Shown here: positions 24,371 to 26,839 of the stretch, piece by piece
Layout: the number at the start of each line of letters is the position of its first letter
Numbering within the stretch: the stretch's first letter is position 1
Sequence record: PP989838.1
DNA from: Escherichia phage VTCCBPA_211
DNA length: 64,000 nucleotides
Direction: 5' to 3' (one strand)
The notes under the pieces: model-generated
The model's input: the letters and a program-made list of their open reading frames with translations, nothing else
What the model was told of the DNA's origin: nothing
The model's database searches: none
Made by a program: the position numbers and the translations under genes

Positions 24371-24916
24371 TTGCAAAATGAATGGGAAGACATTAAACAG
24401 TGTATCCGTTTCTGGGTAGTTGAAAACCAGTGTAAGTTCATCATCCTTGATAACATTACCGCTCTGGTGTCTCATTTAACACCTTCAGAGATTAACACTG
24501 AAATCAGTAAGATTGCTTCCGAGCTTGCTGGTATGTGTAAAGAGTTAGACTTTACCGCTTTCGTGCTATCTCACCTTAATGCTCCGGCAGGTGGTGCTCC
24601 TCATGAAGAAGGTGGACAGGTACGTGAAGTACAGTTCACTGGCTCTCGTTCTCTTATGCGTTGGTGTCAGTGTATCATTGGCTTTGAGCGTGACAAGCAA
24701 GCTGACGGCTTAGCTAAGAACCTCTCAGTCATTCGATTACTGAAAGAACGTAACTACGGTCAGACAGGTGTATGTTATACTAAGTATATCAGTGAAACCG
24801 GTAGACTTGTAGAAAGGGAAGACTTTGAAGTTGATGAAGATAATCCATTCGTTTTAACTAACGGAGAGGATGCAGCTTCTCTCGTCAACCAAGCAGATGG
24901 AGCTTCACCGTGGTAA
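24371..24916 (+). CDS. DNA helicase, C-terminal part (frame open from about 24293)
   Basis: Walker B-like [11 protein letters not shown] and downstream DnaB-family motifs. Confidence 0.75.
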
Positions 24917-25467
24917 AGAAAAAGAAGAAAGTGTTTGCATTCGATATCGAGAGTAATGCACTGTACGATGACATAACTAAAGTATGGTGTATTTATATCT
25001 TCGATGTTGAAACTGGTGAAAGGTGGGGCTATCGGCCTCACCAAATTGAAGATGGGATTCGTAAACTTACAGAAGCAGATGTACTGGTGGGTCACAATAT
25101 TATTGACTTCGACCTTTGTGCTCTGAAGAAGATGTATCCCAATCTGATTAACTATCGTTTTAACGTCTTCGACACTTTATGTCTTAGTCGATATCTTAAA
25201 CCTGACCGTATTGGTGACAGTCCTGAGTATCCGAAAGGCGACCCTAGACGTGGCCCAAGAGGTCATGGTTTGAAGCAGTGGGGTGAGTTCTTAGGAGAGC
25301 TTAAGGGCGATTATGGTGAGCAAGAGGAAGCATGGGATGCTTTCACTGAAGATATGTTTACTTATTGTGAACAGGACGTTAACTTAACTGTTAAGGTTTA
25401 TCTTTTCTTGTGTGAGCTCACGGGATTTGACCCTTACGACCCACCTTCATTATATTGGAAAATGTAA
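24910..25467 (+). CDS. stand-alone DnaQ-like 3'-5' exonuclease
   Basis: Exo I FDIE, Exo II HNIIDFD, Exo III YCEQD. Confidence 0.8.
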
Positions 25468-25468
25468 A

Positions 25469-26839
25469 ATGATTGTTATCCCGATTAACCAAATTGAAGA
25501 TAAGGTTGCTCAACAACCTGATATCACTGTTGGTCGTCACTTCATTGAACAGTTGATTAACAACAATTTAGTTCCAGACGGTATCTGTCCCATCATTACT
25601 GGTGGGGCTGTTCGTGATGCTGTTCTTAACAATATAGCACCACATGACATTGATATCTTTATTGTCAGAGGGCAGCTTCCTGCTGGTAGAAACACTTTCA
25701 CATCAACTGACCGTTGGCAAGCTCTTGGAAGAGAGATTGAAAGTAATGTGAAGGAATGGCTAGAGTCGCAAGATATTGAGTATTCATCACTTCTTGCTGA
25801 AGCTACAAACGAATCCTATGCGGGGGGTTCTCAATTAACATTCACTGATATTATTGAGTTTCAGTGGAATGGGGTTCGTATCCAATTCATGTTTAATTAT
25901 CCTACTTCTATTGAAGAGATATTGGATAATTTTCCTATGATGTGCCGTGGTGCGATGACTCTTGACAACCTATTCATGACTCCTCATGGATATTTGGCTA
26001 TGACCGCTCCTTGCCCGGTGGTTGTTTCTAGTCGTGAAATCAGATACGTTCACAAAAAGTGGCCTAATTCACAAGTGTTAAGATTCTCAGCTCCATCTGT
26101 TGCATATCAATATATGGCCCAAACTCGATACCTTCCTACACCTCAGCCAGTTAGTCATCTGGTTAGTGGATTAGGTCAGGTTTCTCTTATTGAGGATACA
26201 ACAAGTGCTCAATATTGTGTTAACCGAGACATGAGTCTATTCTTTGGAATCCCTTATGAAGAGATTCTATTAATGTCAAGCGTTCACGGGTCTGGTCAGA
26301 TTAGTGCGTATTGGTCTGAAGGGTTGACAAATTTAACGACTAACACGGGTGGTGATCTGCTTGGTCGAGAAGATGAACCTAACCGACACAATGCAATTGA
26401 AGGGGTTTTTGTAGCCCCTGCAATGCGTAGAGCACAAGAGTCACGAAGAGTAAGCCCTACTCGTAGAGCATCTTTTGAAGAAGCTCTCGGTGTTACAAGT
26501 GATTCTATGGAGCGATGGATGGCTAGACCCTCTCGTGGTCGACCAAATGGTTTAACTGTTAGCGCACGTCAGTTCTCTGGTCAGGGTTTTGCTGTCGGTG
26601 ATATCAACGCACCTGTTAGGGCTGTGTGGACTGATGAAGGTGTGGCCCAAGATGTGGTAGGCAGTCTCTCCGATCTTGATACTCCTTCTCATGAGGAACT
26701 CGCTGAGGCTGTCAGCCGCAATCTCGCTGATCGCTTTATTACTAACAACCCTGAAGTATTAGAACCTCAAACCCGTACAGTTCGGTTTGCTGATGAAGCG
26801 GGTCGTGGAATCTCTTTTGACGTAGAAACAAATAACTAA
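25469..26839 (+). CDS. Pol-beta superfamily nucleotidyltransferase (CCA-adding/poly(A) polymerase-type head), C-terminal region unknown
   Basis: ITGGAVRDAVL...HDIDIF matches the GGxVRD...DxD head motif. Confidence 0.55.
   Translation: MIVIPINQIEDKVAQQPDITVGRHFIEQLINNNLVPDGICPIITGGAVRDAVLNNIAPHDIDIFIVRGQLPAGRNTFTSTDRWQALGREIESNVKEWLESQDIEYSSLLAEATNESYAGGSQLTFTDIIEFQWNGVRIQFMFNYPTSIEEILDNFPMMCRGAMTLDNLFMTPHGYLAMTAPCPVVVSSREIRYVHKKWPNSQVLRFSAPSVAYQYMAQTRYLPTPQPVSHLVSGLGQVSLIEDTTSAQYCVNRDMSLFFGIPYEEILLMSSVHGSGQISAYWSEGLTNLTTNTGGDLLGREDEPNRHNAIEGVFVAPAMRRAQESRRVSPTRRASFEEALGVTSDSMERWMARPSRGRPNGLTVSARQFSGQGFAVGDINAPVRAVWTDEGVAQDVVGSLSDLDTPSHEELAEAVSRNLADRFITNNPEVLEPQTRTVRFADEAGRGISFDVETNN

Follow-up and report, generated by a model that had tools for sequence, protein, structure and literature searches.

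Escherichia phage VTCCBPA_211 (sequence record PP989838.1) carries, at positions 25469 to 26839 of the 64,000-nucleotide stretch analysed here (the window), a gene whose predicted product is a nucleotidyltransferase of the Pol-beta superfamily with all of its metal-binding residues conserved. Its catalytic domain of 220 residues is related, at great divergence, to the class II tRNA nucleotidyltransferases and to poly(A) polymerase. The protein is not a canonical CCA enzyme; it belongs to a distinct offshoot of the class II nucleotidyltransferases that is very small, confined to one lineage and evolving rapidly. Our tentative reading is that it might be a non-canonical RNA 3'-end nucleotidyltransferase, with untemplated addition, a specificity other than CCA and a conflict-related role. 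By nucleotide identity the window is assigned to Kuravirus (Gordonclarkvirinae, phiEco32/SU10 group), because over 24371-27400 it shares 96.2% of its nucleotides with Escherichia phage PGN6866 and 95.4% with vB_EcoP_SU10, and this region is matched by about 99 phage records, nearly all of them Escherichia or Shigella phages. The gene and its catalytic domain are placed as follows.

25469 to 26839, plus strand: nucleotidyltransferase gene, ATG to stop codon, 456 amino acids (open reading frame call; homologue alignment).
25469 to 26128, plus strand: catalytic domain of the nucleotidyltransferase, residues 1-220 (conservation, AlphaFold2 model, fold matches).

The ATG lies one base past the stop codon of the gene for a stand-alone proofreading exonuclease, and the start methionine that it encodes is invariant in all 33 aligned homologues, which led us to reject a longer reading frame from GTG 25412 as the nucleotidyltransferase gene. 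The Pol-beta signature hG[GS], [DE]h[DE]h, h[DE]h is present as G45-G46, D60-I-D62-I and D/E127-I in 32-33 sequences. Its first two parts lie in the sequences GGAVRD (residues 45-50) and DIDIF (residues 60-64), and 13 positions (G45, G46, R49, D50, D60, D62, F64, Y117, I128, Q139, P156, Y193 and K197) do not vary even in homologues at 21-30% identity. Position 127 is always acidic (D in 23 sequences, E in nine) and is inferred to be the third carboxylate; position 190 is likewise always D or E. Because this signature is conserved, the enzyme is very probably active.

Structure prediction agreed with this assignment. An AlphaFold2 model of residues 1-240, made with remote homologues added, reached a predicted local distance difference test score (pLDDT) of 89.4 and a predicted template modelling score of 0.86, and has the Pol-beta superfamily fold, with the motif residues on predicted strands 39-44, 61-67 and 125-133. 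A full-length model made with close homologues only (pLDDT 35) was uninformative. The fold matches of the model were class II CCA-adding enzymes and poly(A) polymerase, with CCA-adding enzymes as the top neighbours. Among viral models, Foldseek returned small proteins (167-230 amino acids) of T7-supergroup podophages labelled "nucleotidyltransferase / poly A polymerase head domain".

The family is narrow. A word-index search found only homologues of at least 77% identity, and repeating it with a family profile added almost nothing. HMMER, run exhaustively over 1.84 billion cluster representatives, gave only 32 clusters, 29 of them at E <=1e-10; these share residues 1 to about 215 and then carry tails of differing length, for totals of 274-482 amino acids. 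Among cultured phages, tblastn located the domain in Gordonclarkvirinae only, and every genomic context examined for the clusters was a Gordonclarkvirinae-type locus. Direct searches with the 456-residue protein against PDB sequences, NCBIfam and PADLOC gave nothing meaningful. For most close homologues (P0003, P0004, P0006 and others), a precomputed Pfam hit to PF26128.2 is on record, which was not reproduced at E up to 10. Our literature search found no functional study of this family; the SU10 protein, gp74, is among those detected by mass spectrometry, from one peptide, with no function proposed (PMC4281155).

To define the relationship with canonical enzymes, the family was compared with a class II reference alignment consisting of E. 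coli Cca, E. coli PcnB and three crystallised class II enzymes. The class II motif A, GGxVRDxxLG...DxD, is shared: hhalign aligned it with 82-87% probability over 26 columns, and HMMER against the CCA enzymes of the PDB gave an E value of 0.0034, aligning only residues 37-63. Nothing beyond the 26 motif A columns was aligned by hhalign, alternative alignments included. Motif B, RRD, which serves ribose recognition and is invariant in the reference (R90-R91-D92), has no conserved counterpart in the family alignment, and the base-templating motif D, EDxxR, equally invariant in the reference (E130-D131-x-x-R134), was not found there. The family instead carries R-[DE]190-x-x-Y193-x-x-K-K197 on helix 188-197. 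We infer that this helix could be the positional equivalent of the motif D helix, and R[DE]xxYxxKK is not claimed as motif D, as hhalign aligned motif A only.

Domain and family profiles gave a similar picture. The gathering score of PF01743 (23) was not reached either by the window protein (15.7 bits) or by its homologues (20.1-20.9 bits), and 20 of the 27 family members gave only sub-threshold hits to it. Pfam at E up to 10 found no domain besides PF01743 in the nucleotidyltransferase and no helical tRNA-binding body or tail, and residues 240-456 are without counterpart in the family members of 274-300 amino acids. E. coli Cca matches the phage family phrog_2244, "tRNA nucleotidyltransferase", at 1.9e-132, whereas the window protein and the tested homologues do not match it. 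PHROG 1614 acts as a sequence bridge, being matched by the window protein and three tested homologues (E 1e-6 to 4e-10) as well as by E. coli Cca (4.5e-10).

In summary, what the phage family has in common with the class II enzymes and poly(A) polymerase I (PF01743; PDB 3aql, 3h37, 1ou5, 1miv and 4wby) is motif A, with the same GGxVRD...DxD, and a third carboxylate on the following beta-hairpin. It differs in lacking RRD and EDxxR, in having an invariant set of its own (Q139, P156 and the helix 188-197 residues) and in the disordered tail of 236 residues that replaces the helical body and tail.

The preliminary description of this DNA, made without database searches, had recognised the head motif of CCA-adding and poly(A) polymerase-type enzymes in a 456-residue protein directly after the exonuclease, with a C-terminal region of no assigned function. 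All of this holds, the catalytic acids being intact and the C-terminal region containing no recognisable domain. Neither of the two findings that it had named as fatal turned up: the catalytic residues are invariant and not non-catalytic variants, and in place of a host-like CCA body the C-terminus has pLDDT values below 40 and no body detectable by Pfam. Its first suggestion for function, repair of tRNA 3' ends, fared less well. As a bona fide CCA-adding enzyme, the protein would rebuild acceptor ends damaged by host defences. The CCA/poly(A) polymerase type of motif A and the CCA-adding enzymes at the top of the structural ranking speak for this, and the fast evolution of the gene (see below) is compatible with a conflict role. 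Against it stand the sub-threshold PF01743 scores, the neither aligned nor conserved motifs B and D, the missing body and tail domains and the lack of a phrog_2244 match. The only tRNA gene in the window, a tRNA-Arg with anticodon TCT at 9380-9456, has its 3' CCA encoded in the gene, and the E. coli host has a Cca of its own. A universal tRNA acceptor substrate would also be expected to constrain the enzyme surface more than identities of 28-40% suggest. We consider this explanation distinctly unlikely. An argument against nucleic-acid binding based on the acidic isoelectric point (pI) of the catalytic domain was rejected, as in two CCA enzymes, those of E. coli and B. stearothermophilus, the head and neck are just as acidic.

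Close parallels are the small stand-alone nucleotidyltransferases of T7-supergroup podophages (PHROG 1614; Pseudomonas phage LKD16 gp16, which matches this family at 9.5e-40). They are also phage-encoded, with a class II-type motif A and without body and tail, and their models are structural hits in BFVD at E 1e-8 to 1e-4. In the phiKMV-type phage LKD16, gp16 also lies in a DNA-metabolism module, between the helicase and ligase genes. However, the Kuravirus protein belongs to a separate family, PHROG 12715 (hhalign to LKD16 gp16 aligned 41 columns only, at 40% probability), it is twice as long as those of PHROG 1614 owing to the tail, and its family is restricted to Gordonclarkvirinae-type genomes. 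Similar genes in the middle regions of Friunavirus genomes (Fri1-like podophages) are called "tRNA nucleotidyltransferase" by annotation only, and no small nucleotidyltransferase is annotated in the KP34 replication module.

Other branches of the superfamily were less similar. Structural similarity to the MenT and AbiEii toxins was much lower than to the class II enzymes, PADLOC gave no sequence match to them and no antitoxin partner was found. A host-directed toxin or shut-off enzyme, which would block tRNA acceptor ends as MenT and AbiEii do or polyadenylate host RNA for decay, is nevertheless suggested by Klebsiella phage fHe-Kpn01 Gp22, a 182-residue protein placed with CCA-adding enzymes by HHpred, which has the hG[GS], [DE]h[DE]h and h[DE]h patterns and is toxic when expressed in E. 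coli (PMC7291057). However, Gp22 is a remote relative at best, the phage needs translation throughout infection and none of the PADLOC toxin and defence models gave a hit, so that this explanation also appears improbable. Still less probable is an enzyme acting on a protein or small molecule by nucleotidylation, or one producing a signal or decoy nucleotide, for example by AMPylation of an immunity protein or synthesis of CD-NTase/OAS-like oligonucleotides. Fast evolution would fit a variable protein target, but such folds rank clearly below the class II RNA enzymes, no partner gene is evident at the locus, and Pfam and PADLOC gave no sequence or profile match to CD-NTase/cGAS-like signalling synthases, which were not the closest fold either.

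The gene neighborhood of the nucleotidyltransferase was then compared among relatives. Directly downstream lies a dCTP deaminase gene.

26849 to 27382, plus strand: dCTP deaminase (TIGR02274, 107.8 bits against a cutoff of 92.8).

All ten loci examined have preserved the gene order helicase - exonuclease - nucleotidyltransferase - dCTP deaminase, except that one short contig breaks off ahead of the deaminase; the nucleotidyltransferase in these loci is 28-40% identical to that of the window or, in the two closest, 85%. As a rule, distant homologues included, its gene begins right where the exonuclease gene stops. As all ten loci belong to one viral lineage, this synteny reflects shared ancestry and is not independent evidence of functional coupling. 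The locus has been described as syntenic apart from homing endonuclease insertions (PMC11990801). In Aeromonas phage LAh_6 (2951-6474), the slot between exonuclease and dCTP deaminase, downstream of the helicase, holds an unrelated hypothetical protein of 123 amino acids, and the split exonuclease therefore does not depend on having the nucleotidyltransferase as its partner. The possibility that the LAh_6 protein is a degenerate nucleotidyltransferase was tested and rejected. Scans for promoters, terminators and repeats around the exonuclease and nucleotidyltransferase genes revealed nothing above chance.

The nucleotidyltransferase is diverging much faster than its neighbours, as seen in the percent identities to the window proteins.

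Eight divergent loci: helicase C-terminus 78-92; exonuclease 56-87; dCTP deaminase 75-95; nucleotidyltransferase catalytic domain 28-40.
phiEco32: helicase C-terminus 99; exonuclease 98; dCTP deaminase 98; nucleotidyltransferase catalytic domain 85.

Fast divergence with the active site kept is typical of proteins that face a variable partner, and speaks, if indirectly, for a function at the phage-host interface.

The same neighborhood raises the possibility of a DNA modification or DNA-end pathway shared with the adjacent genes, in which the enzyme would nucleotidylate, for example, a base or a DNA 3' end. Such a pathway, as proposed in the BASEL study, would explain the strong resistance of Gordonclarkvirinae to restriction-modification systems, which that study reports without a known modification pathway (PMC11990801). 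The conserved gene order fits this idea, as does the place of the small LKD16 enzyme between helicase and ligase genes, and the absence of the ribose-discriminating RRD leaves room for the use of dNTPs. Several observations argue the other way. The dCTP deaminase and the downstream ThyX (29902-30558; TIGR02170, 129.2 bits against an equivalog cutoff of 87.9) form what by sequence is an ordinary dTTP supply route, which calls for no exotic base. With ThyX present and both proteins passing their equivalog cutoffs, the idea of dU-DNA was not needed for the deaminase either. The replaced slot in LAh_6 indicates that the nucleotidyltransferase is not integral to the module, the common lineage of the loci deprives the synteny of independent weight, and a rate of evolution 5-10 times that of its neighbours would be uncommon in a core DNA enzyme. 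A role of this kind is therefore unlikely, in our view.

The tail of the protein is organized into three segments.

26129 to 26338, plus strand: linker with two family-wide motifs, FFGIP (residues 258-262) and YWSEGL (residues 281-286) (alignment).
26339 to 26713, plus strand: variable, indel-rich, low-complexity segment, residues 291-415 (predicted disordered).
26714 to 26839, plus strand: conserved C-terminal peptide LADRF...RTVRFADEAGRGISFDxETNN and stop codon (Kuravirus alignment).

Residues 240-456, with pLDDT below 40 in the full-length AlphaFold2 model, are predicted to be disordered. Among Kuravirus members, mean pairwise identity falls from 89.5% over residues 1-220, where no column is gapped, to 65% over residues 301-415, where 43 are; the last 40 residues are conserved. 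The final residue is aromatic in nine of the 26 cluster representatives, where about two would be expected (p ~8e-5 if the sequences are independent), and most of the representatives without a terminal aromatic residue have [GS]-x-[WF] within their last eight residues. Disordered tails with a terminal aromatic residue are docking peptides in SSB, T7 gp2.5 and T7 gp4. By analogy, the conserved C-terminal peptide may be a docking motif, which we offer as a lead. In the Kuravirus homologues P0018, P0026 and P0040, another C-terminal peptide (...PQVGGELDQLLNSQNIR) replaces RTVRFADEAGRGISFDxETNN, and this terminus looks frameshifted or replaced.

The length and disorder of the tail and its conserved terminal peptide suggest tethering, and the protein could also be a catalytically dead scaffold or adaptor kept in the replication module. 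However, neither the three carboxylates nor the GG loop varies, even among homologues of only 21-30% identity, which makes this explanation hardly credible. Rather doubtful is a counter-defence or host-takeover enzyme seated in the replication module, whose core the disordered tail, by its aromatic docking peptide, would tether to a phage or host partner and whose target for nucleotidylation would be the end of an RNA or DNA or a host immunity factor.

The reading that we prefer, if tentatively, remains the non-canonical RNA 3'-end nucleotidyltransferase. In this model, the active enzyme would move nucleotides from NTPs onto an RNA 3'-OH without a template; we infer an RNA 3' end as substrate because nearly all of the structural neighbours extend RNA 3' ends. 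Its specificity, for nucleotide as for substrate, should not be that of CCA addition, and the tail, in place of a folded body and tail domain, would supply the binding of substrate or partner. Several homologues do have a basic tail (pI 9.4-11.2). Counter-defence or host takeover, at the phage-host interface, would be a likelier role than core replication because the gene evolves several-fold faster than the flanking replication genes with its active site kept. Of the roles offered by the preliminary description (repair of tRNA ends, tailing of RNAs or a part in nucleotide signalling), none is supported as stated; this divergence does speak indirectly for a conflict-related role in general.

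Several observations weigh against this reading. There is no profile-level similarity to the class II enzymes beyond the 26 columns of motif A, so that the class of substrate is inferred from fold ranking alone. The fixed place of the gene in a replication and nucleotide module, together with the start/stop coupling, would fit a DNA-related role equally well. The fast divergence could instead reflect relaxed constraint or allele exchange. Finally, the Kuravirus tail is acidic overall, with a pI of 4.8.

The exonuclease gene upstream and the polymerase gene to which it relates were analysed in the same way.

24910 to 25467, plus strand: stand-alone 3'-5' proofreading exonuclease, GTG start, 185 amino acids (PF01612, PHROG, T7 gp5 alignment).
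34695 to 36040, plus strand: DNA polymerase (T7-like PolA polymerase domain), exon 1, ending inside motif B (...RDNAKTF) (PHROG).
36041 to 36728, plus strand: group I intron of 688 nucleotides in the polymerase gene (RF00028, E 0.023), with an HNH-like reading frame from ATG 36144 to 36638.
36729 to 37227, plus strand: DNA polymerase, exon 2 (PF00476, E 4.6e-16).

The exonuclease scores 34.1 bits with Pfam PF01612, above the gathering cutoff of 23.6, matches PHROG families named "DNA polymerase exonuclease subunit" (E 2e-79 and 8e-38) and aligns with residues 3-178 of T7 DNA polymerase (E 5.5e-12). All three exonuclease motifs are intact: Exo I (DxE) as D12-I-E14 in FDIES, aligned to D5-I-E7 of T7 gp5; Exo II (Nx2-3(F/Y)D) as N63 and D68 in H62-N63-I-I-D-F-D68, aligned to HNGHKYD of T7; and Exo III (Yx3D) as Y152-C-E-Q-D156, aligned to YNVQD of T7. 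The gene thus encodes the DEDDy proofreading domain of a T7-type family A polymerase, apart from the polymerase domain. The intact SU10 polymerase aligns to residues 289-698 of T7 gp5 and is without an exonuclease domain, so the two proteins are complementary pieces of a T7-type PolA, and the exonuclease is expected to act as a subunit of the family A polymerase of the phage. The preliminary description was right that the exonuclease is a gene of its own, with Exo I to III, about 9 kb upstream of the polymerase, which starts at 34695, 9.2 kb downstream of the exonuclease.

Homologues of the exonuclease occur in 2148 phage records, mostly as the N-terminus of a full-length T7-like polymerase, and among the many phages with a separate gene annotated as "exonuclease subunit" are Aeromonas phage LAh_6, Pseudomonas phage KG853 and Lentibacter phage ICBM2. 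In their treatment of S-SBP1-like cyanophages, Czernecki et al. (2023; PMC10201439) describe exo/pol fission in T7-like PolA at a single disruption site. As in T7 gp5 and these split PolAs, the Kuravirus exonuclease corresponds to the N-terminal DEDDy domain, and the polymerase gene is without that domain. In contrast to the cyanophage fission, which in that treatment is a single-site break and not a distant separation, the Kuravirus genes lie 9.2 kb and about 30 open reading frames apart, the exonuclease gene travels with the helicase gene, and the polymerase part is split further in the window by an intron. This part of the locus is of minor interest, as one more, unusually distant, exo/pol gene fission among T7-type polymerases. 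The arrangement of split exonuclease and nucleotidyltransferase was already known: SU10 has it in its annotation (PMC4281155), and the BASEL paper drew attention to it in 2025 (PMC11990801). The SU10 RefSeq equivalents are gp076 (DNA primase/helicase), gp075 (DNA polymerase exonuclease subunit), gp074 (nucleotidyltransferase) and gp073 (dCTP deaminase), with gp051, the DNA polymerase, about 8.6 kb beyond gp073.

The polymerase intron, which the preliminary description had missed, interrupts PolA motif B (DNAKTF / IYGFLYGAG), and the joined exons are in frame, giving 614 amino acids. Its RF00028 match is weak (E 0.023), and a P1 helix (AGACGU/GCGUCU) with a U.G pair at the 5' splice site and the terminal G are present. 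With this intron and the separate exonuclease, the polymerase is encoded in three pieces in this phage. At the protein level exon 2 is 69% identical to SU10 and exon 1 94%; the divergence of exon 2 suggests recombination or a co-conversion tract beside the intron. The primase/helicase gene upstream of the exonuclease is interrupted as well.

22387 to 24916, plus strand: primase/helicase, directly upstream of the exonuclease, with exons 22387-23634 and 24374-24916.
23635 to 24373, plus strand: group I intron of 739 nucleotides in the primase/helicase gene, with an HNH/NUMOD4 homing endonuclease reading frame at 23743-24273.

The joined exons encode a protein of 596 amino acids that is 99.8-100% identical to the product of the uninterrupted SU10 gene. 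The intron matches RF00028 at E values of 3.6e-6 and 7.4e-5 and has a P1 helix (CUUCGGU/GCCGAAG) with U.G at the splice site and a final G. Both group I introns start with the same 11 nucleotides, TAACACAATGG.

Two further groups of genes were noted in the window. Between the dCTP deaminase and ThyX genes lie a Dps/ferritin-like protein (28548-29159) and a phage thioredoxin (29408-29680). A cluster at 12791-22167, upstream of the replication genes, carries, by annotation of SU10 and metagenome relatives, a COOH-NH2 ligase, an amidoligase, a glutamine amidotransferase, a RimK-like ATP-grasp protein and a gamma-glutamyl cyclotransferase, and might bear on whatever modification chemistry these phages have.

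The Gordonclarkvirinae are common E. coli phages that are used therapeutically, and their nucleotidyltransferase is conserved, specific to the lineage, rapidly evolving and, as judged from its motifs, apparently active. If it is a tethered counter-defence enzyme, it would contribute to the unusually broad resistance of these phages to bacterial immunity. Characterising it could reveal a new nucleic-acid or protein nucleotidylation reaction, and defining one such enzyme would give a function to the widespread "CCA-head-only" proteins of phages, those annotated in the DNA-metabolism modules of phiKMV-type and Fri1-like podophages included.

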